Assembly (NCBI GenBank): GCA_021498095.1
Contig: JAIZWK010000001.1
Coordinates: 1,260,001-1,292,000, forward strand
Reading direction: 5' to 3'
DNA from: Candidatus Harpocratesius repetitus
Lineage (GTDB): Archaea; Asgardarchaeota; Lokiarchaeia; Sigyniarchaeales; Promethearchaeaceae
Length of the DNA stretch: 32,000 bases
In this document: piece after piece, positions 118-29,876 of the stretch
Layout of the letters: each line of letters starts with the position of its first letter
Position numbering within the stretch: position 1 is the first letter of the stretch
The notes under the pieces: model-generated
Told to the model about the DNA's origin: nothing
Seen by the model: only the letters and a program-made list of their open reading frames with translations
The model's database searches: none
Program-made: the position numbers and the translations under genes

Positions 118-1206
118 TTAACTTTGCTTCTTTTTTCGCTTCAAAAAGCCTTTTTTCTTTTCGTCAAATGACTCCTTTATAATAGTGGATTTCTCATGCC
201 ATTTTTCTTTCACATTTTCAGAAATTTCTTCTAAATTTTCCCTTAATCGCGCAATAGCGGGTTTGTCTTTATCTGGAATAACCGCTTCAGCTAAGTGCAG
301 TTCTTGTGAATATACATCACAGGGATATTCATCGGGTAATGCATCAGAATTCAAACCTCCTTGTTCAAACCACGCCTTGGCTCGCTGGTAAGCAAGATCA
401 ATCCATTCTTTCGAATGTGAAAAATCAAACGGATCTAAACGGGCATCATTAGGTGAAGGAAGTACATGTATTGATACTTTAGATCGGTAATGATAATAGT
501 CTGAGATCATTTGACGGGCTAAGACATAAAGAAATGTTCTAGCTAGCACTTGTTCTAATTTTTTTGGATAAACATCAGGTGTGTTTGGATATCCGATGGG
601 AAAAACGATGATATTCTCGGCACCAAGTTTTATTGCGGTTGAAATTGCACTGTTGTTTATCAAACCGCCGTCTACCAGCATCATATTATGCATATATTGA
701 GGGGGGTAAACCATAGGAATCGCAATGCTACTCATTAGGGCTTCTATGGCTCTTCCTTTATTAAATACAATTTCTTTTCCCGTTTTCAAATCTGAGGCAA
801 CAGCATAAAAAGGAATGGTTGTTTCTTCTAAGCGTTGGAAAGGCAATGATCGTTCAATTAATTTACGAATATTTTTAGGGGATATCAAATATTTTCCAAA
901 GGTTGTTAGATTTTTAACTGGGGTTATTGGTGAAGGTGTAAAGACATCTGTGAATTTTACTTTATTCCAAACAGATTCTAAATATTCTACTCCCTCTAAA
1001 GTGGGGTTATATGCAAAAATTGCACCATTTAGGCTTCCAACAGATGTTCCAAGAATAAAATCTGCTTTTATTCCAAATTCAGTTATCGCTTTTAGCAGAC
1101 CAACTTCAATTGCGCCCAAGCTTGAACCGCCGGAAAACACAAATGCTGTTTTTCTTTCTGTATTCGATGATTGTGTAATTTTTGTTTTTTGTAAAGATTG
1201 ATTCAT
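118..1206 (-). CDS. Patatin-like phospholipase (NTE/RssA-like)
   Basis: Gly-rich FSGGSSLG loop, catalytic GTSVG (GxSxG) and DGG motifs; Lys-rich C-terminal extension. Confidence 0.92.
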   Translation of the reverse strand: MNQSLQKTKITQSSNTERKTAFVFSGGSSLGAIEVGLLKAITEFGIKADFILGTSVGSLNGAIFAYNPTLEGVEYLESVWNKVKFTDVFTPSPITPVKNLTTFGKYLISPKNIRKLIERSLPFQRLEETTIPFYAVASDLKTGKEIVFNKGRAIEALMSSIAIPMVYPPQYMHNMMLVDGGLINNSAISTAIKLGAENIIVFPIGYPNTPDVYPKKLEQVLARTFLYVLARQMISDYYHYRSKVSIHVLPSPNDARLDPFDFSHSKEWIDLAYQRAKAWFEQGGLNSDALPDEYPCDVYSQELHLAEAVIPDKDKPAIARLRENLEEISENVKEKWHEKSTIIKESFDEKKKGFLKRKKKQS

Positions 1207-1267: not shown

Positions 1268-1373
1268 TTAAGAGGTTCTAGCAACTTCTATATTTTTGAC
1301 TGAATTACAATTTTCATCTTCCCTTCTCCGATTATAATCAAATATATCTAAAAATTACTTCAGTCGCGAAGAT
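1268..1373 (-). repeat. Dispersed intergenic repeat, copy 1 (homolog at 28128-28234)
   Basis: Manual alignment: 1268-1366 matches the reverse complement of 28136-28234 without gaps at 83/99 positions, including a 22-nt exact block TTAAGAGGTTCTAGCAACTTCT. Confidence 0.9.
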
Positions 1374-1395
1374 TAAATCAAATTTCAATGTATTT

Positions 1396-1998
1396 TTATA
1401 ATTTTTGAGATATTGGATAATATTCTACTATAAGATGTGGAGAAAGAAGATTTGCTAACCGCATTCCTTCAATTTCAGTCATCCAAGGGCGGATGAGTAC
1501 TTTTTTTTTCTGGTTTTTCAAGTATATCTCAATTTTCCAATTTGGCACCCTAACACGTATATAGAGCAGAAGAATACCAATAAACATAAGAATTGTAGCC
1601 AATCCCCACCACAAAAGTTTACGTTTAGGATTATATTGAATGATTATTTTTTCAATTTGATTAAATTGAATGAATGCAGGTTTATGAAATTGTGATTGTA
1701 GTTTAACCGTCTTTTTTTGCACATCAAAACGAACTGATTGACCGTACAACATATCTTGGAATTTCACTGGTTCAATACGGTTCAAAATTGTAAATTTTGG
1801 TTGAGTAGTATTGTATGGATTGCGAGAAATGTCTGATTTATGCGAATCGTTTGAATTGTATGATTTACTTGGATTGTGAAAATTATGTATATCTGAATTG
1901 TCTGAGTTGTCTGAGTAAACTGAGTTGCCTGAATTGTGAGAATTATGCAGATCGTTTGAATTAAATGAATTATTTGAATTTTGCATTGAATTGATCAC
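1396..1998 (-). CDS. Hypothetical membrane protein with N/S/D/H-rich low-complexity N-terminus
   Basis: 200-aa ORF directly abutting the upstream stop (TAA|GTG); probable start ATG at 1986; one hydrophobic segment (LLWWGLATILMFIGILLLYI). Confidence 0.75.
   Translation of the reverse strand: MINSMQNSNNSFNSNDLHNSHNSGNSVYSDNSDNSDIHNFHNPSKSYNSNDSHKSDISRNPYNTTQPKFTILNRIEPVKFQDMLYGQSVRFDVQKKTVKLQSQFHKPAFIQFNQIEKIIIQYNPKRKLLWWGLATILMFIGILLLYIRVRVPNWKIEIYLKNQKKKVLIRPWMTEIEGMRLANLLSPHLIVEYYPISQKL
1893..1937. repeat. Degenerate 9-bp coding tandem repeat (5 units, CTGA[AG]T core)
   Basis: ctgaattgt ctgagttgt ctgagtaaa ctgagttgc ctgaattgt; encodes xNS-type tripeptides on the minus strand. Confidence 0.75.
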
Positions 1999-17960: not shown

Positions 17961-20540
17961 ATGCCTATGGATTATTCAAGTGTAAATAATATAAAACGAA
18001 AATATCTAAAGCGGGGAGAATTTGCGCGCCCGGAAACAGAGCGGAAATATGCTCCTTCCTTGGAATTTGAACCTACTCACCAAACAATTAATTTGAACTT
18101 TGAAATAGCTAAGCAAAAAGCTGAAGGATTTGTAGAAACTCAATTAACGGCAAAAACTTCTTCTGCTAGTATAATTAAGTATGATGCAATCAATCTTTTT
18201 ATCAAAAATGTTGAAGGACCAGACGAATGGCATTATGATGGAATAGTTTTAACGTGCAAATGGAAAAATCCTCTTTCTAAAGGTGATACAACTTCAACCA
18301 AAGTTTTTTATTCCGTAGATCATCCGATCTCAGGGTTGTATTTCAGTAATCCCGATGAATTTTATCCTGATCGTCCTCGCTATGCTGTTACCGATGTTGA
18401 ATCTATACGAGCGCGCTATTGGTTGCCATGTGTTGATCATTTAAGTGTTCGATGCACACTTGATTTTTTCCTTACCAGCGATAAAGAACATACAATTTTA
18501 GCAAATGGAAAGCTTGTTTCTGAAGAAAATCTTCCAAATGGAAAGAAAATGGTGCATTGGTCCTTGGATTTTCCCTGTCCTAGTTATTTAATCACTTTAG
18601 CTGTGGGGGAATTTATTGAATATAAAGATAGAGATGCTGATACCGGAAAAGGGCATATTCCAGTCGCATATTATACCACAAAGAATTATACTGTTGAAAA
18701 TTTGGGAAAAAGCTTTTCGGGCACACCTGATTTCATTGAATGGATGGTTAAAAAGTTAAATTGTCCTTTAGAATGGCCTAAATATTATCAAATTGCAACT
18801 GCTCTTCATGGTGGTGCCATGGAAAATATTTCTTTAGTAACTTGGGGTGATTTTGCCATTATGGATGAACGAGAAAGAGCCGAATTTAAATGGCTGGTCG
18901 ATTGGATTAATGTTCATGAACTTTCCCATTCTTGGTTTGGTGATATGATCGTTTGCAATGATTTCGCTCATGCGTGGTTGAAAGAAAGTTGGGCAACATA
19001 TGTAGAGAAATTGTATTATGAAGATTCTCAAGGAATTGATGCTTATCTCTATGGAATGTATGAAGATCGTTGTGATTATATGAAGGAAAGTGATGAACGT
19101 TATGCTCGGCCTATAGTAACCAAAGAATATGAAAGTTCTTGGGATATGTACGATAAACACCTCTATCCTGGTGGTTCTTTTCGACTTCATATGTTAAGAA
19201 ATATAATTGGAGATTCTGCTTTTTTCGAAGCAGTAAGTGATTATTTGAATACATTCAAAGGAAAAACGGTTGAAACTATTGATTTTCAACGCAAATTAGA
19301 GTTCCATTCTGGTATGAATTTACAGCCATTTTTTGATCAATGGTTATTTTCTCGCGGATATCCTCAATTAAAAGCAGATTTTTCATATGAAGATAAATCT
19401 CAATTAGTAAAAATCAGAATCTCTCAAAATCAAGTGGATGAAAAAGCCAAAATTGGTGTTTTCAAATTTCCATTGGTAATTGAGTGGGAAACTGCAGAGG
19501 GTGAGCTTAAACGCCAAACTTTTCAAATTAACGAAAAAGACCAGACTTGTTACTTTAAATGTGAGCACAAACCACTACGCGTTCAGTTAGATCCTGATTT
19601 TCATCTTTTATTTAGTTTGGAGTTTAATCCTGGACAAGATCTCTTATTGCGACAATTGATGAAAGGAAATTTAATCGGTAGGATCTTTGCGGTTCAAGAA
19701 TTGGCAAAAATAGGCAATTATCAAGCAATATCGGCAATATCAGAACAATATAAAAAAGAAACTTTTTGGGGAATCAAAGTAGAATTCTTGAAATCATTGC
19801 TTTCTATAAAGAATTATCATGCAATTGAAAAAGCAGTTGAGATATTAAGTAATGAGAAAGATCCTCAAACATTATTTCATTCTATCGGGGAATTGGAAGG
19901 AAAACGCCATCAAATCATAGTTGATATGATAAAAAGTTTTATCAATCGTTCTGAATACTATTATCATTCAACAGGAAATGCCCTTAAGGTTCTCGGTAGT
20001 CAAAGATCAAAGGAAATGTGGGATTACCTTTCTTCTTTAACCCTTCCAGCAGATTACAATAATATATTAAAAGGTTATCAGTTTGAAGCAATTGGAAAAC
20101 TGCGACTTCCTGATTCAGTTGACTATCTAAAGGAAAAAATAAGATATGGAAAATCTCCAGAGAATATTCGCCGACAAGTTATTAAGGGATTAGTTGATGC
20201 TCTCACTTGGGCGAAAAAAGAAATTAAAGAAGAGATTTTAGAAATATTCCAAGTGGAAATTGAAAGAGCATTAGATGAAACATTTTTGATACAAATAGCT
20301 TTTGCAATTCAGCAATTAAGGTTACCTCGAAGTAATTCACTTTTGATTGCACTGAAATCTCGAATTTCAACTCAATTCCATCCACGTTTGGAGAAATTGA
20401 TTAAATCCTTAGAAAAATCAGAAAATTCTGCAGAAGCAAGTAAGCAACAGGCTGAAAAGCTCGATAAACTTGAAAAAATGATGGAAAAATTAATATCCCG
20501 TGTTGAAATATTAGAGCAAAAGGTTAATCCTGCAAAATAA
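17961..20540 (+). CDS. M1 family aminopeptidase with C-terminal HEAT-like repeats and coiled coil
   Basis: GGAMEN exopeptidase motif, HELSH-x18-E (WLKES) Zn motif, YPGGS..LHMLR; GGTGA RBS 6 nt upstream of ATG. Confidence 0.93.
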   Translation: MPMDYSSVNNIKRKYLKRGEFARPETERKYAPSLEFEPTHQTINLNFEIAKQKAEGFVETQLTAKTSSASIIKYDAINLFIKNVEGPDEWHYDGIVLTCKWKNPLSKGDTTSTKVFYSVDHPISGLYFSNPDEFYPDRPRYAVTDVESIRARYWLPCVDHLSVRCTLDFFLTSDKEHTILANGKLVSEENLPNGKKMVHWSLDFPCPSYLITLAVGEFIEYKDRDADTGKGHIPVAYYTTKNYTVENLGKSFSGTPDFIEWMVKKLNCPLEWPKYYQIATALHGGAMENISLVTWGDFAIMDERERAEFKWLVDWINVHELSHSWFGDMIVCNDFAHAWLKESWATYVEKLYYEDSQGIDAYLYGMYEDRCDYMKESDERYARPIVTKEYESSWDMYDKHLYPGGSFRLHMLRNIIGDSAFFEAVSDYLNTFKGKTVETIDFQRKLEFHSGMNLQPFFDQWLFSRGYPQLKADFSYEDKSQLVKIRISQNQVDEKAKIGVFKFPLVIEWETAEGELKRQTFQINEKDQTCYFKCEHKPLRVQLDPDFHLLFSLEFNPGQDLLLRQLMKGNLIGRIFAVQELAKIGNYQAISAISEQYKKETFWGIKVEFLKSLLSIKNYHAIEKAVEILSNEKDPQTLFHSIGELEGKRHQIIVDMIKSFINRSEYYYHSTGNALKVLGSQRSKEMWDYLSSLTLPADYNNILKGYQFEAIGKLRLPDSVDYLKEKIRYGKSPENIRRQVIKGLVDALTWAKKEIKEEILEIFQVEIERALDETFLIQIAFAIQQLRLPRSNSLLIALKSRISTQFHPRLEKLIKSLEKSENSAEASKQQAEKLDKLEKMMEKLISRVEILEQKVNPAK

Positions 20541-20650
20541 TTGAAGATTTCTGCTTAATCTTATTTTTTCTTCTATTTTTTTAAAATATTTCATAATTTA
20601 ATTTTAATTCTTTTTCACCATTATTTTTACGAAAAATTCAATGGAAAAAT

Positions 20651-20784
20651 TATTAAAAATAATATAATATTGTTTATATTATAATTATATTAAGATAATT
20701 TAAATTATATTATAATTTAGATAATATAATCAAAAATATTTTCATTAAAATATGATATAAATTATATTATATTAATTTAAAAAT
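20651..20784. other. Extremely AT-rich intergenic tract
   Basis: 6 G/C in 134 nt (counted); TAAATTATATTATA repeated at 20701 and 20758. Confidence 0.8.
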
Positions 20785-20864
20785 GTGTTTGATTAATTTT
20801 GATTATAAAAATTTCGCATTAAATTCATTTAGATTCATTCTTTATTGGAGTATGAGGGAATCAA

Positions 20865-21203
20865 ATGGAAAATGATTACAAATTAATTATATCTCCAGCT
20901 GCATTATCTCATATTCGTGAAGTTGGTTTAAAGCAATTTGATGATGCATATGTGCTTGTTTTGGCCGACACTCATGCAATTGGTGGAATTGTAGTTCCTG
21001 AAATTCACCCCATTGAAATGCTTTATGATAATTATCATTTTAGGGAATTGTTCCCACGAGATTATCAAAATTATGGATTTCCCATTTATGTTGATCGAAC
21101 GATGGAACGAGAAGGTTATCTTCCACAGCATATGTTAATTGATTTTCTTCCTACATATGAAGGGATGAATTTAGTTTTTAAAAATCCTGATTTTGAATCC
21201 TGA
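20865..21203 (+). CDS. HesB/IscA-fold-like protein lacking cysteines
   Basis: IISPAALSHIRE and IYVD..GYL..IDF..LVFKNPD resemble the A-type carrier pattern; the protein has zero Cys. Confidence 0.55.
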   Translation: MENDYKLIISPAALSHIREVGLKQFDDAYVLVLADTHAIGGIVVPEIHPIEMLYDNYHFRELFPRDYQNYGFPIYVDRTMEREGYLPQHMLIDFLPTYEGMNLVFKNPDFES

Positions 21204-23497: not shown

Positions 23498-23572
23498 AAA
23501 ATAAAAATATTATAATTGAGGATATTTTATCTTTTATAATTCAAGCGCTTTTTTGAATATCATTTAAATATA

Positions 23573-23774
23573 TCCGACTTAAATCTGAAATATCGCAATT
23601 CTTTTTTTGTTGAACTCAATTTTTTCAAAGAATTTGTTAAAAATTTACCATTCTGTTTATAAATTCTTCAATCTGATGTCCTTTTTATTATAATTCTTGA
23701 TTTGCATATCTTGAATTTGGCAACTTGGTAAAATCGACAAAAAATAAGAAAGGGTATTTTAGATTTGAGTCGGG
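23573..23774 (+). other. ~200-bp intergenic element bounded by long imperfect inverted repeats
   Basis: 23573-23594 pairs with 23753-23774 over 22 contiguous positions (18 Watson-Crick, 4 G.U on the + strand); 23599-23613 pairs with 23734-23750 with bulges. Confidence 0.65.
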
Positions 23775-23831
23775 AGAATTAAGATGATGAAATGAAAAAA
23801 TTCGAATCTTTGAAATTTAAAATACCCTTAA

Positions 23832-24752
23832 TTACATTGGATGTAATTTTTTTTCAATTTTATCGATTTTTTCACGCACATAGTGATCGATTTCTCTTAG
23901 TTCAAGTAATGCAACTTCATGTGCTCTACTTGGATCTGAACTTTGCATCGAGAAATCTATGTTTTGTTCTTCTCCAGATTGTTTTTTGAGTGCTTGCAAT
24001 TCTTCTTTACTGAATTTATGTGAAATTGCACCATCTCTGATGTAATATAAACGATCTGCAATTGCTTTCAACTCAGGATCGTGAGAAACAATGATCATTG
24101 TTTTTTCTGGAAATTTTTTAATAACTGAATGTAATAATTCCATAATAATACGTTTTGAAGCTGTATCTAATTCACCAGTCGGCTCATCACACAATATTAT
24201 ATCCGGATTATTCGCTAAAGCAGCTGCAATCGAAACCCTTTGTTGTTCACCACCACTTAATTCATCTGGACGATGGGTTTTCCGCTCACTTAATCCGACA
24301 ATATCCAGCAAAGAGTTAACAAATTCTTTACTTGCTTTATTCAATGTTTTTGACAACTCTAATGGAAGAAGAATATTTTCTTCCGCTGTAAGTTCTGGAA
24401 TCAAATTCATAAATTGGAAAACAAATCCTATTTTTTTCCTACGATATTGTTCCATCTCTCTATCTGTATATTGTGCAATATCTACACCATTTACAAAAAT
24501 TCTTCCAGATGTTAAACGATCTAATCCTCCAATTACATTTAAGAGAGTTGTTTTTCCACAACCACTTGGTCCCATAATAACTGTTATTTCTCCCGCTTTA
24601 AATTCACAGGTAAGTCCACGAAGTGCTACAACTTCAATTTTTCCTCGTTTATATATTTTTATTGCATCATCAATTTGAATTGATCCCGACTGCTGGGCAA
24701 GAGCATAGGTCATATTTCCGTTTTGTGTTTGATTATCACTCATTATTTTCAC
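23832..24752 (-). CDS. ABC transporter ATP-binding protein (LolD/MacB-like)
   Basis: GPSGCGKT, LSGGEQQR, LCDEPT, SHD motifs; C-terminal helical extension; probable start ATG 24743. Confidence 0.93.
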   Translation of the reverse strand: MKIMSDNQTQNGNMTYALAQQSGSIQIDDAIKIYKRGKIEVVALRGLTCEFKAGEITVIMGPSGCGKTTLLNVIGGLDRLTSGRIFVNGVDIAQYTDREMEQYRRKKIGFVFQFMNLIPELTAEENILLPLELSKTLNKASKEFVNSLLDIVGLSERKTHRPDELSGGEQQRVSIAAALANNPDIILCDEPTGELDTASKRIIMELLHSVIKKFPEKTMIIVSHDPELKAIADRLYYIRDGAISHKFSKEELQALKKQSGEEQNIDFSMQSSDPSRAHEVALLELREIDHYVREKIDKIEKKLHPM

Positions 24753-24797: not shown

Positions 24798-27700
24798 TTA
24801 CGCAGAAATTCTCAGAAGATCTCCTATCTTTGAAACATCTGATTTTCTAGTTTCAATTGCAACAGCAATTGCAATACTCACTATAAAAGCAAATATAGAT
24901 CCTGCAAGTTGAAGAAGAAGCTTGCCCCATTGTATATAGATTTCTCGTTGTAAGGCTCCTGATATTCCCATTCCACTTAAATTATTTAATTGTATAATAA
25001 TAGATGCCCCTCCAAGAATCCCAGTAAATGTGAAAAGAGTTCCTAATAAAATTAGTGTAAGCCCTTCTGCAATTTGGATCTTGTATATTACTTTCTTTTC
25101 TACTCCTCTTGCTCGTAATAAACCCATATCATGGGATTTCTCGTTAATTGATATGTACATAATTATTGCAATCCCGAAAGTCACAATTGTGAGAAGATAC
25201 AAGCTTTCTAAATTAAGAAATCGGAGTAATGACCCCGTAATATCAGTAACACCTTCATTCCAAGTTTGATATTTTTCAACATATCCATTAGGATCCCATT
25301 CTTTAATTAATGTAATTAATTTATCTATATCGATTTCTTCAAGGGATGATCCAGCACTAGGATAGAATGTTATAGTAATATCTTTAATTATACCATCTTG
25401 AATTGTTTGATTTGCAATAATTATTTCTGGATTCCAAGTATATTCATCTGTTAAAGGAAACGCAGAATAACTTCCTAAAATCTTAATCTCTAATTCAATT
25501 AGTTCAGAAATGGAATCATTTGCAGAATTATATTGAATTGTAAGATTTTCACCTACTTTATATCCTTGTTCAACCATAGAATCAGGAATTAAGCAGTAAT
25601 TTCCTTGGGATAATTTTGAAATAACTTCAACACCATATTCCGAATTTATCCATTTAGAATAAATATTGATATCTTTTGTATAATTTTCTGCAGATATTAA
25701 AACAACATTGGGACTTCCCATATATCCATAGTCATCATAAAATCCATCATATACTTCGATAGATGTTTTTAAGCGGCCACCATATAGAGTTCCAAGCCAA
25801 TTCAATCCCCTAACATTGACATCTGAAAAATTGGGCTGAAGATTACTCACCAAATTGTCAATACCATCAGTTCCTAATCGAGATGAATAAAGATCAACAC
25901 GAACTCCATTTCCAGATAAAATTGTATTTCTTTGGTTTTGGTAATTAATTTCAGAGCCTTCTACTGTAGCAGATAATACTAAAAAGCTTAGTGCCATTGC
26001 TACGATGAATACCAAACGAAATGAACGTGCTTGGTTATTTATTATACTTTTTGAAGTAAATACTGAAATATTTTTTGAAAATAATTTGCTAATTTGACTT
26101 ACTACTTTTTGAAAAAATGAAATATTCCTACATAAAAGTTTCACTAGTGCATACGTAAGTATAAAAGGTGCAAAAGGAAGAATCGCAGTTGAAATGGATA
26201 TCAAAGGATATAATATTATAAGTAATCCAAAATTTGCTTGATTCATTAATAAATCTCCAATAATTGAAATTAATATTGGAAAACCTCCAACAATTAATAA
26301 TATCCAATCTATTTTCTTTTTGGGAATTGTATTATAACTTACTTCATGGTATTTTGCTAATCCTTCAATAGGTTCCATTTTAGAGAATTCTTTTAACGGT
26401 TTTCTAACAGCAAAGATTGAAATTATAATACCACCAATTATCCCAATTATCCATGTTGAGAGTTTCATATATTCTCCAGAAAATATTTGGCTAATAATTG
26501 AAATAGTTGTCTGATCTTGAAGTGCTTGAGGATAAATTCTACTTAAGACTAAGGTTGATGTAAAATTTCCTCCCAGTATGCCAAGAATTCCCCCTATTCC
26601 ACCAATAATCAAGGCTTCTAAGAAAAACATTGATTTTAGTTGTGCTGTAATCCCTCCTTTAACTTTTAATAAGGCAATTTCTCTTCGACGCTGTTGGTAA
26701 CTTAACAACCAGTTTGTTTTACAGAGATACCACCCTAGTATTAGTACGGGAAGTGAGATAAACAGAAATAATGTCTGATATAAAATCATCTGAAATTGAA
26801 CTTGTCTTACAACTTGTTTGAGTGAAGTTGAAATTGAATGAAATCCTCCTTCACCTATACGTGAAATCCTGGTTGATATATAATCTAATCTGTCCGAGAT
26901 TTCACTTGGTTGGATATTTAATATTTCACTATGCTCTAATAGCACTGCATATTGAATTGAAAATAAGTTTCCTCCATTCTGCCATAAATTTTCATAAGAA
27001 GAAACTGGATTTTCTGCTACATTATGCATCATCAATTCCATTTCATCAATCAAATTCTGAATATATGAAATATTTCCTAAAATCAACCTGCTCCCATCTG
27101 GAAAATAATAATCTGAAGCCCCAATTATTTGTTGAATATTTTGCATATCAGATACATCAATTGTTCCTAAAACTGGAATATTTGTTGAATTTATTAGGTG
27201 ATTTACTTCTACGTAATTTTCGCCAATATTCATATATTCTTGAAAGACAACTCGAATTGTAAGGTTATCTCCAGGATTAAGTTGCATGTATTGTGCAAAA
27301 CTTGAATCGATATATATTCCATCTTGCGATAAATTTAAGGGTGTATTAAATTGAATCACATCACTAAAACGCGATTGAATTTGTTGTTCTTCAAAAATAT
27401 TTTGGTATAAGCCACAAAAGATTGAAAAATTAAATCGATTCCATAATCTGTAGTCATCATTAGAAAGATAATCCGACCAATTTATTGAAGTAGAATTTGG
27501 AATATATATTGATTGATAATAAGTGGCAGAACCAACTACATAAGAAGTAAGGTATTCATCTATTTCTAAAGATAATTTGTTTAGTTTATCTAGATTTGCA
27601 GTGATATTATCATCTCTACTTTTCAAAGTAAAATCTACTTTTACTTCATCTAGTTGTTCTTTTATCATATGAAGTGCCATACGATTGCTGGCAATATTAA

Positions 27701-27800
27701 CTCCTGAAACCAACATAATGCTAACAATAATCCCAACCATTATAAGAAGTGAACGGGTTTTATTGCGCCATAAGGAACGTCGTAAATAATTTCGTATCAT
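24798..27800 (-). CDS. FtsX-like ABC permease (duplicated FtsX architecture)
   Basis: Two FtsX signatures (QRRREIALLKVKGG and EKSHDMGLLRARG), large extracytoplasmic loops, adjacent ATPase. Confidence 0.88.
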   Translation of the reverse strand: MIRNYLRRSLWRNKTRSLLIMVGIIVSIMLVSGVNIASNRMALHMIKEQLDEVKVDFTLKSRDDNITANLDKLNKLSLEIDEYLTSYVVGSATYYQSIYIPNSTSINWSDYLSNDDYRLWNRFNFSIFCGLYQNIFEEQQIQSRFSDVIQFNTPLNLSQDGIYIDSSFAQYMQLNPGDNLTIRVVFQEYMNIGENYVEVNHLINSTNIPVLGTIDVSDMQNIQQIIGASDYYFPDGSRLILGNISYIQNLIDEMELMMHNVAENPVSSYENLWQNGGNLFSIQYAVLLEHSEILNIQPSEISDRLDYISTRISRIGEGGFHSISTSLKQVVRQVQFQMILYQTLFLFISLPVLILGWYLCKTNWLLSYQQRRREIALLKVKGGITAQLKSMFFLEALIIGGIGGILGILGGNFTSTLVLSRIYPQALQDQTTISIISQIFSGEYMKLSTWIIGIIGGIIISIFAVRKPLKEFSKMEPIEGLAKYHEVSYNTIPKKKIDWILLIVGGFPILISIIGDLLMNQANFGLLIILYPLISISTAILPFAPFILTYALVKLLCRNISFFQKVVSQISKLFSKNISVFTSKSIINNQARSFRLVFIVAMALSFLVLSATVEGSEINYQNQRNTILSGNGVRVDLYSSRLGTDGIDNLVSNLQPNFSDVNVRGLNWLGTLYGGRLKTSIEVYDGFYDDYGYMGSPNVVLISAENYTKDINIYSKWINSEYGVEVISKLSQGNYCLIPDSMVEQGYKVGENLTIQYNSANDSISELIELEIKILGSYSAFPLTDEYTWNPEIIIANQTIQDGIIKDITITFYPSAGSSLEEIDIDKLITLIKEWDPNGYVEKYQTWNEGVTDITGSLLRFLNLESLYLLTIVTFGIAIIMYISINEKSHDMGLLRARGVEKKVIYKIQIAEGLTLILLGTLFTFTGILGGASIIIQLNNLSGMGISGALQREIYIQWGKLLLQLAGSIFAFIVSIAIAVAIETRKSDVSKIGDLLRISA

Positions 27801-28127
27801 ATCTTAAATTCTCCGAGTTTTAAAAATCAATTTTTTTTCATTTTTATTTAAATATTCATAATTTTTACTCAATTTTACCCATTGTATTATTCATAAAAGC
27901 AACCAATTTTTGAAATTTTCCTTTATTTTTCCTTTAAATAATATATGGAGAAAAAAAGAATATAAATTCGATTTTAGCGATAAATTTGATAAATTTACGC
28001 ATTTACCAATATTCCATCCAAATTTGAAATTTGTCGATCAGAAATTTAGATCTTTTTTTAACAAATTCAACTATAATTTGATTAAAAATAGTCAAAGAAC
28101 AACCCATAATTATATTTTCTAAAGTTC

Positions 28128-28234
28128 ATCTTTGCCGACTGAAATAATTCTTTGACAATTTTGATTATTATCGAAAAAAGAAAGATTAAAATGGAAATTC
28201 AGTCAAGAATAAAGAAGTTGCTAGAACCTCTTAA
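28128..28234 (+). repeat. Dispersed intergenic repeat, copy 2 (homolog at 1268-1373)
   Basis: See copy 1; ends 37 nt upstream of the LOG start codon. Confidence 0.9.
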
Positions 28235-28271
28235 TGCAGAAAATCAAAAATTATAAGGAATTATTCTACAT

Positions 28272-28853
28272 ATGATTAAATCCATAGCCGTATTTTGCTC
28301 TTCAAGTAATTTTATTGCTCCTAAGTTTTTTGATATTGCTCAAAAGATAGGTGAATTGCTTGTTAAAAACAATTATCACTTAATTTATGGAGGGTCGGCT
28401 GTTGGACTAATGGGAAAATTAGCTGAAACGGTTAAAATAAATGGGGGTGTTGTGGTTGGCATTATTCCTGAAGCAATATCTTCTAAAGTACCTCATATAG
28501 ATAACTATGATGAATTAATTATAACCAATAGCATGAGAGAACGGAAAGCTGAAATTGAAAAGCGCGCTGATGCATTCATCGCTTTACCAGGTGGTTTTGG
28601 AACGTTGGAAGAGTTAATTGAGATAATTACCTTGAAGCAATTACAGTATCACAATAAACCAATTGTTATTCTTAATGCTTTCGGATTCTATAATTATCTT
28701 TTAAAGCATTTTGAATATCTTTTTACCAATTCATTCGCGAACCAACAATTCAAGCGACTTTATCATGTTGTTGAATCGCCTATAGCCGCAATAACTTATT
28801 TTAAGCAATTTTCTTTATCAAGTATTCCCATTTTTGGAAATTTTTCGCTTTAA
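28272..28853 (+). CDS. LOG family (TIGR00730) nucleotide phosphoribohydrolase
   Basis: IYGGSAVGLMG, MRERKA and ALPGGFGTLEE motifs. Confidence 0.93.
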   Translation: MIKSIAVFCSSSNFIAPKFFDIAQKIGELLVKNNYHLIYGGSAVGLMGKLAETVKINGGVVVGIIPEAISSKVPHIDNYDELIITNSMRERKAEIEKRADAFIALPGGFGTLEELIEIITLKQLQYHNKPIVILNAFGFYNYLLKHFEYLFTNSFANQQFKRLYHVVESPIAAITYFKQFSLSSIPIFGNFSL

Positions 28854-29045
28854 TGGAATAAACGAGCAAGTATAATTAATTCAAAGATGATCAACTTTAT
28901 TTAGAATAAATATTTACATGTAAACCATATGAACCATATGAAAATAAAAAAATCATATTGTGCCAGTTGAAAGTAATGGAATTTTTATTTGTACTATATG
29001 AAAGTACTATTTAATTATATCTAATATTTCTGAGATTTTTATATT

Positions 29046-29876
29046 TTGGAAAATATTTTTTGGAGGATGATATCCATATCGATGGTCTGGCATGAAATTT
29101 TATTTTCAATCTGCGTAGGTTCTCTTATAGCAGGAATATTATTAGTTAGTTTGCTTCTCTTTTTATCTGCAACCTCGCTCTCAACTAGTAATCATATTGA
29201 GCATTTTGGTGCAGATTCTGGCACAGATGCTGCAATTAATGATAATTTTGAAGGGGATCATTCGCTTTCAAGCGATCATGATATTAGTTCGGAGCATGAA
29301 TTTACTTCTGATCATGATATTAGTTCGGAGCATGAATTTACTTCTGATCATGATATTAGTTCGGAGCATGAATTTAGTTCGGAGCATGATTTTGCTTCTG
29401 ATTTCATAAGTGAAAGCCAATTTCCTGAATTTGTGCAAACTAAAGGTAAAACGCCATTATCTCTAAAATTTTCTCTTTTCTTGCTTTGGTTTGGTGCTAT
29501 TGGAATATTCCTATATGATTATATAAAATTAAAAGAATTTTGGATTATTTTGACCATTCTATTATCTTTTGGTATATCAATTATAATCACAAAATTTTGG
29601 AGCAAAATTGCTCGAAATACTATGTATCGAGTCCGTTTAGGCAATGAATTGATTGGAAGACAAGCTACTGTTAAAATTCCCGTTTCAAAAGGGGGTGGTG
29701 TCATATCTGTAAACACTTATGATGCCGTCCAAACACTGGCTGCAAGATCACTTCATCCATTATCTTATTTTTATCCAGGTGATCAAGTGTATATTTGCAT
29801 AGTAAAAGATGGCATGTATTTAGTAGATGATAATCCTGAAAGTGCAAGAATTCAAACTCGAAAATTTAAGAATTAA
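29046..29876 (+). CDS. NfeD/YqiJ-like membrane protein with His/Asp/Glu-rich repeat loop and C-terminal OB-like domain
   Basis: TM1, acidic His loop, two more TMs, LIGRQATVKIPV..GVISV..G-x-x-V OB-type pattern; directly upstream of an SPFH gene; start may be ATG 29067 or 29082. Confidence 0.8.
   Translation: MENIFWRMISISMVWHEILFSICVGSLIAGILLVSLLLFLSATSLSTSNHIEHFGADSGTDAAINDNFEGDHSLSSDHDISSEHEFTSDHDISSEHEFTSDHDISSEHEFSSEHDFASDFISESQFPEFVQTKGKTPLSLKFSLFLLWFGAIGIFLYDYIKLKEFWIILTILLSFGISIIITKFWSKIARNTMYRVRLGNELIGRQATVKIPVSKGGGVISVNTYDAVQTLAARSLHPLSYFYPGDQVYICIVKDGMYLVDDNPESARIQTRKFKN
29274..29393 (+). repeat. 36-bp coding tandem repeat (DHDISSEHEFTS)
   Basis: gatcatgatattagttcggagcatgaatttacttct exact x2, then a 30-bp partial unit and an 18-bp sub-unit. 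Confidence 0.95.

Follow-up and report, generated by a model that had tools for sequence, protein, structure and literature searches.

The two ~100-nt repeat copies that lie in a 32,000-nucleotide stretch of the Candidatus Harpocratesius repetitus genome (the whole of which is referred to here as the window) are very probably dead, 5'-truncated fragments of a 289-bp MITE, which we call MITE-A. A non-coding element with terminal inverted repeat (TIR) tips has been amplified in this genome to tens of near-identical copies, and its 95-bp bipartite end is shared with an insertion sequence (IS) that encodes a DDE transposase. Cut-and-paste is the mode of transposition that we infer for MITE-A. The two copies had previously been read as a new leader RNA or regulon element linking a patatin gene and a LOG gene, with a small mobile repeat offered as the fallback; it is the fallback that is borne out, by TIRs, 4-bp target-site duplications (TSDs) and IS-related ends.

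In a repeat search of the window, positions 1268-1366 and 28136-28234 are recovered as inverted copies of 99 nt that are 84% complementary, in agreement with the repeat first reported at these positions. This pair is the longest inverted repeat of the window, the other listed pairs reaching at most 85% and at most 80 nt and consisting of AT-rich sequence; when the two copies are aligned in gene sense, the alignment stretches a few bases further with one 1-nt indel. A chance origin of the repeat is excluded by the BLAST E-values of 1e-20 to 1e-30 that are obtained between MITE-A members in this 4.36-Mb genome. The genes next to the two copies are the following:

118-1206, minus strand, patatin-like phospholipase gene (Pfam Patatin)
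28272-28853, plus strand, LOG/Lysine_decarbox-family gene (Pfam)

The repeat is separated by 61 nt from the patatin ATG at 1206 (minus strand) and by 37 nt from the LOG ATG at 28272; both distances had been given correctly, and Pfam backs both gene assignments. The window also holds a large AT-rich near-palindrome at 20634-20800 (arms at 20634-20713 and 20721-20800, 80 nt each, 74% complementary and 7 nt apart), which is intergenic, between an ORF ending at 20540 and an ORF starting at 20865. At 29238-29419, within the ORF 29046-29876, there are at least eight tandem 18-nt units, which imply a hexapeptide-repeat segment rich in D/E-H-D/E-F/I-S/T-S.

The genome that was searched is a single contig of 4.36 Mb with 31% G+C. 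A BLAST search of it with the element gives 41-44 matches of 80-89% identity on both strands, and 43 matches score above 50 bits with a MITE-A profile derived from full-length copies; the repeat itself had been recognised correctly, whereas the count of two copies does not hold for a genome with ~43. When the matches are aligned together with their flanks, the 3' boundary is sharp, homology reaches far upstream of the flagged 100 nt in most copies, and elements most often reach ~295 nt from the 3' end that they share, flank included. Full-length copies make up 27 of the 43; they are 288-291 bp long, with a consensus of 289 bp and a mean identity to that consensus of 95.5%, and the flagged 100 nt corresponds to the 3' end module of this longer element. 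Intact copies start with GAG and end with CTC, where homology stops, and their terminal inverted repeat is imperfect, the tips matching at 10 of 14 positions. In 25 of the 27 full-length copies the 4-bp flanks are identical on both sides and show an NTAW preference (ATAA 10, TTAA 7, TTAT 4, ATAT 2, GTAT 1 and CTAA 1). Left and right flanks of each copy agree in the variable first base of the tetramer, the chance of finding identical tetramers at MITE-A spacing in this genome is 0.7%, and at least six different tetramers are found in each of MITE-A and a second family, MITE-B (see below). The flanks of MITE-A are a 4-bp target-site duplication with an NTAW preference. The consensus is non-coding, its longest stop-free stretch being 48 codons, and a 70-codon ORF that overlaps the copy next to the LOG gene (27910-28122) is without a Pfam match. 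MITE-A shows several of the features by which a MITE is recognised, namely small size with sharp ends, TIRs, varying TSDs, no coding capacity, dispersed copies and IS-related ends.

The context of the copies was scored on a rough ORF-based gene map, in which 84% of the genome is coding. Intergenic DNA harbours 39 of the 43 copies; 19 of the 43 are co-directional with the downstream gene and face its 5' end, 24 face a gene's 3' end, and the strands are represented by 22 plus and 21 minus copies. The orientation of MITE-A relative to neighbouring genes is random, and this combination of many copies with random orientation and context is the very outcome that the original prediction had named as speaking against itself. 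That copies often sit just upstream of genes is explained by position alone, since insertions are hardly ever retained outside intergenic DNA. Sequencing runs found to contain 27700-29000 are DNA runs only. The contigs of the source metagenome also show the signs of a multi-copy repeat: summed depth rises from ~16 to ~1000 (~60-fold) across 27924-28259 and contigs break at the element edges; filled/empty insertion polymorphism was not seen in the population contigs over 27000-29500.

When compared with the MITE-A consensus, the two window copies (referred to as copy A and copy B) are resolved into the following parts:

1272-1377, minus strand, copy A, 5'-truncated MITE-A relic (consensus 183-289; nhmmer 73 bits, E 5.5e-20; 88/107 identical)
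27991-28230, plus strand, copy B, 5'-truncated MITE-A relic (consensus 50-289; nhmmer 229.8 bits, E 9.7e-68; 225/240 identical)
1268-1271, TTAA flank of copy A, surviving half of the TSD (from the sequence and the TSDs of full-length copies)
28231-28234, TTAA flank of copy B, surviving half of the TSD (from the sequence and the TSDs of full-length copies)
1272-1285, plus strand, TIR tip of copy A (GAGGTTCTAGCAAC read inward; 10/14 against the other MITE-A end)
28217-28230, minus strand, TIR tip of copy B (10/14 against the other MITE-A end; near-identical to the IS left tip)
1363-1366, plus strand, subterminal GTCG box of copy A, at position 92 from the tip (shared with MITE-B and IS ends)
28136-28139, minus strand, subterminal GTCG box of copy B, at position 92 (shared end architecture)
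1346-1349, plus strand, position-75 box of copy A, mutated, with ATCT for ATCC (sequence against family consensus)
28153-28156, minus strand, position-75 box of copy B, mutated, with GTCA for ATCC (sequence against family consensus)

Copy A is the 3' end module alone and is found past the stop of ORF 1396-1998 and ahead of the patatin start at 1206, and copy B lies between the start of an FtsX-like gene at 27800 and the LOG start at 28272. The extent first given for the repeat needs correction at both ends: the last 4 of its 99 nt (TTAA, at 1268-1271 and 28231-28234) belong to the target that flanks the element, and the length of ~100 nt falls short for copy B, in which homology to the family spans 240 nt (27991-28230). 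Similarly, the imperfect palindrome that had been noticed in the invariant 3' block is present in the sequence, but what it represents is the inverted-repeat tip of the element. Measured against the consensus, copy A (82% identical) falls below the family mean and copy B (94%) is about at it, which places both among the more diverged members. They are no longer mobile, as the 5' end module is lost and the position-75 box is mutated; in metagenome contigs, other copies over the copy B site carry the consensus position-75 box, with G at 28153 and T at 28156.

A structured cis-regulatory leader RNA (riboswitch-like, with a pseudoknot) common to the patatin and LOG genes, which is what had initially been proposed, is now to be regarded as extremely improbable. 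It would account for the fact that both window copies point at a gene start, 61 and 37 nt off, and three short helices can indeed be drawn in both copies, as claimed. However, when the pairs of these helices are counted on an alignment of 30 family members (26 distinct sequences), no pair is altered on both sides, the covariation score is no different from the shuffled mean (0.083 vs 0.083), and 14 of the 26 distinct sequences cannot form the central pair of the 7-bp helix. The reported compensatory change from C-G to U-A needs a 1-nt indel between the two copies and is unrepeated in the family, and the GACUGAA arm of the longest proposed helix coincides with the GTCG box at position 92. The RNAalifold consensus has an energy of -4 kcal/mol and a fold different from the proposed helices; compared with dinucleotide shuffles, the single-copy folds give z values of -0.15 and -0.71 in gene sense, and between -0.15 and -1.19 when both copies are folded on both strands. 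Rfam yields no match at gathering thresholds in the window and, for a full-length copy, only one chance match at E 0.88. In addition, only 19 of the 43 copies face the 5' end of a gene, and in a congener the patatin gene lacks the element but retains the 60 nt adjoining the ATG, a TATA-like box among them. A regulon element shared by the patatin and LOG genes does not survive the finding of ~43 randomly oriented copies with zero covariation, shuffle-like folding and no Rfam match.

The congener in question (G002) has its patatin and LOG orthologues on a single contig, separated by ~24 kb, an arrangement that matches the window. Its patatin locus is syntenic, with patatin and the two upstream neighbours at 77%, 66% and 65% protein identity, and gives no MITE match even at E 10. 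The patatin intergenic region measures 81 nt in the congener and 189 nt here (83 nt plus the 106-nt relic), and the ~60 nt next to the patatin ATG, which include a TATA-like TTTT(A/T)AG box (at 1234-1240 of the window, minus strand), are conserved between the two genomes. As these ~60 nt are kept in the element-free congener, the promoter region of the patatin gene pre-dates the insertion and lies downstream of the relic; the element-free syntenic site is a between-species comparison. At the place matching copy B, the FtsX-like/LOG intergenic region of the congener (G002:C1; L049 1206-1305) has a 100-N scaffold gap, which may mark an unassembled repeat. MITE-A itself was not found in the 40 relatives searched (two of them of the same genus), many of whose assemblies are fragmented, such that repeats may be unassembled. 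The 200-aa ORF next to copy A (window 1396-1998, minus strand) has a 151-aa orthologue in the congener that aligns only from residue 58 on, and its N-terminal part contains diverged direct repeats of ~59 nt (window 1820-1983); either its true start lies further downstream or its N-terminus has been expanded by repeats.

One feature of the relics sits less well with their being mere truncation products of MITE-A: three to four of them break within ~15 nt of one another, at consensus positions 177, 183 and 190, and such clustered breakpoints are not predicted by random deletion. It could be proposed that MITE-derived relics have been exapted and that their end module now helps to regulate the adjacent genes, for which it could serve as an upstream activating or repressing site, as an outward promoter, or as a binding site for the transposase or a transposase-derived regulator. 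Several relics keep an end module of ~100-113 nt (177/183/190 to 289) with an intact GTCG box, and both window relics lie directly upstream of promoter-proximal DNA. We nevertheless consider exaptation very unlikely, as there is no orientation bias in the family, the position-75 box is mutated in both window copies, and their 82% and 94% identity to the consensus suggests neutral decay; moreover, the patatin orthologue of the congener has a conserved putative promoter region and no element. The reading of the two copies as dead fragments of MITE-A is the one that we retain.

A partner for MITE-A was looked for in the genome among GAG...CTC pairs whose tips are similar and whose NTAN flanks match. 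This search gives the following element:

Genome 2233279-2235103, IS of 1825 bp with a TTAA duplication and one 496-aa ORF

The protein encoded by this ORF matches Pfam DDE_Tnp_1 with 31.9 bits (cut-off 23). Against the NCBIfam IS1182 and IS1634 models its matches are weak and far below the cut-offs; membership of IS1182 was rejected at 32.3 bits against an equivalog cut-off of 270. The genome contains one intact IS, one frameshifted (degraded) copy, several solo ends and two paralogues of the transposase at 32% identity. In the protein database the transposase has 87 homologues, most of which carry PF01609; the few with a source name are Asgard (Promethearchaeota, Harpocratesius, Sigynarchaeota), and one is named IS4/IS5 family transposase. 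A pattern scan of a collection of genome contigs with the transposase gave no confirmed relative. Read inward, the MITE-A end module has 78 identities with the IS left end over ~105 nt (~72%). This alignment scores 31, where shuffled sequences give 8.9 +/- 2.7 (z about 8); the tip at the IS left end, GAGGATCTAGCAAT, is near-identical to the MITE-A tip of copy A. All six ends of MITE-A, MITE-B and the IS have ATCC beginning at 75 and GTCG at 92, counted from the terminal G. The same boxes are present at both ends of a 1838-bp IS from another Asgard metagenome (ATAT duplication; transposase 58% identical). A Candidatus Harpocratesius sp. assembly contains a further IS (transposase 82% identical) that has them at its right end. 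Across the genome, GAG followed by ATCC at 75 and GTC at 92 occurs 142 times, against 0-2 occurrences at control offsets; 41 pairs of this end architecture are spaced 288 or 289 bp apart, and of the more widely spaced pairs, the 1825-bp IS alone has flanking tetramers that match.

An intact MITE-A is built from two ~95-bp end modules and ~100 bp of filler and encodes nothing; each end module combines an inverted-repeat tip that begins with GAG with two boxes, ATCC at 75 and GTCG at 92. In our working model, MITE-A would be mobilised in trans by the transposase of the 1825-bp IS, a member of the IS4/IS5 superfamily of DDE transposases (Pfam DDE_Tnp_1), which would bind the tip and the 75/92 boxes at both ends and then to synapse the ends. 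Insertion would take place into A/T-rich NTAW tetramers via a 4-bp staggered cut, leaving a 4-bp duplication. The ATCC and GTCG boxes are likely transposase-binding sites, and the 1825-bp IS, or a close paralogue of it, is the probable mobilising partner of MITE-A; with the IS left end only ~72% identical to the MITE end, the transposase responsible could be a lost or a paralogous copy.

The shared end also allows the window fragments to be viewed as solo ends of the autonomous IS, or of an unseen element with the same end module, rather than as truncated MITE-A. The end module is indeed common to the IS and at least three MITE families, and copy A keeps this module alone. Yet copy A is 82% identical to the MITE-A consensus, compared with ~72% for the IS left end, copy B runs 240 nt into the MITE-A-specific interior, and in the four solo ends tested, the sequence upstream shows no pattern of repetition that would point to a larger element behind them; the probability that we attach to this view is next to nil. 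A different proposition is that of an undescribed Asgard IS family whose transposase reads two sites ~90 bp apart at fixed phasing, together with solo ends of ~100-110 nt (e.g. copy A) that persist by binding this protein and influence their neighbours. We regard this as unlikely.

MITE-A is one of several such elements in the genome. MITE-B is present in 20 copies, 19 of which are exactly 289 bp long (e.g. genome 703248-703536; the copy at 2706458-2706746 adjoins a MITE-A copy). Its flanks are identical 4-mers in 18 of the 20 copies, and its tips, like those of MITE-A, match at 10 of 14 positions. The two families align without any gap at 163 of 289 positions (56%), from which it follows that length and box positions have been conserved while the sequence has diverged. 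A third family, MITE-C, has a full copy in the window:

23518-23829, MITE-C copy, full 312 bp (tips GAGGATATTTTA...AAAATACCCT(T), with AATT on both flanks)

This copy is intergenic, ahead of ORF 23832-24752. There are at least 50 MITE-C copies in the genome; this family, too, has ATCC at 75 and GTCG at 92, and it is found nested in two MITE-A copies (genome about 479343-479640 and 2359646-2359945). MITE-A, MITE-B, MITE-C and the IS form one superfamily that is defined by a long bipartite end, with a GAG tip, ATCC at 75 and GTCG at 92. A further stretch of 3144 bp (genome 3642749-3645892) has MITE-B-type ends with 23/24 identical tips and TTAT after each, and encloses ORFs of 431 aa and 367 aa and no transposase. 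One possibility is a composite element moved by two MITE ends; the matching TTAT flanks are weak evidence, as MITE-B inserts into TTAT more often than into any other target, and a TTAT duplication already flanks the left MITE-B copy by itself. The genome also encodes one Piwi-domain protein (3526454-3527359; 822-aa open frame, 215 bits against PF02171), which is of interest given the heavy MITE load.

In the description of Candidatus Harpocratesius repetitus, repeats are reported to make up 4% of the genome, and the term MITE is absent from the text (PMC8813620); a 2026 survey of archaeal insertion sequences mentions MITEs in general terms only (PMC13343696). In the open literature searched we found nothing specific on MITEs in Asgard archaea and no description of MITE-A. 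The copies in the window are ordinary MITE relics, and their biology is conventional. Once they are recognised as such, one supposed new archaeal riboswitch or regulon falls away, and the annotation of a repeat-rich Lokiarchaeial genome is helped. The MITE/IS superfamily with its fixed-position subterminal boxes provides a concrete substrate for studies of DDE transposition in Asgard archaea, as well as markers for strain-level insertion polymorphism.

How do these elements compare with known systems? With riboswitches and other 5' leader RNAs (as collected in Rfam) the window copies have in common that they are intergenic, ~100 nt long, and upstream of and co-oriented with a gene; they differ from them in having no Rfam match, no covariation and no excess stability, in the random orientation of the family, and in the presence of TSDs and TIRs. 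Tourist-type MITEs of eukaryotes are mobilised by PIF/Harbinger transposases, which are distant relatives of IS5 and use a TWA target. They resemble MITE-A in their GAG/GGG-type tips, in a TA-centred target (NTAW here), and in non-autonomous copies that far exceed the partner in number. In contrast, MITE-A has a 4-bp rather than a 3-bp duplication and a prokaryotic host, and the transposase of its IS matches only Pfam DDE_Tnp_1, plus, weakly and below threshold, the NCBIfam IS1182 model. The closest parallels are prokaryotic MITEs derived from ISs of the IS4/IS5 superfamily, archaeal examples of which are found in Sulfolobus, Methanocaldococcus and haloarchaea. Like these, MITE-A is small (289 bp) and non-coding, has TIRs and a short A/T-rich TSD, occurs in tens of mostly intergenic copies, and is related through its ends to a resident DDE-transposase IS, which it far outnumbers. 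It differs from them in that its sequence has no match in the 40 relatives searched, and in its end, which is long (~95 bp) and bipartite and extends beyond a short TIR to boxes fixed at positions 75 and 92.
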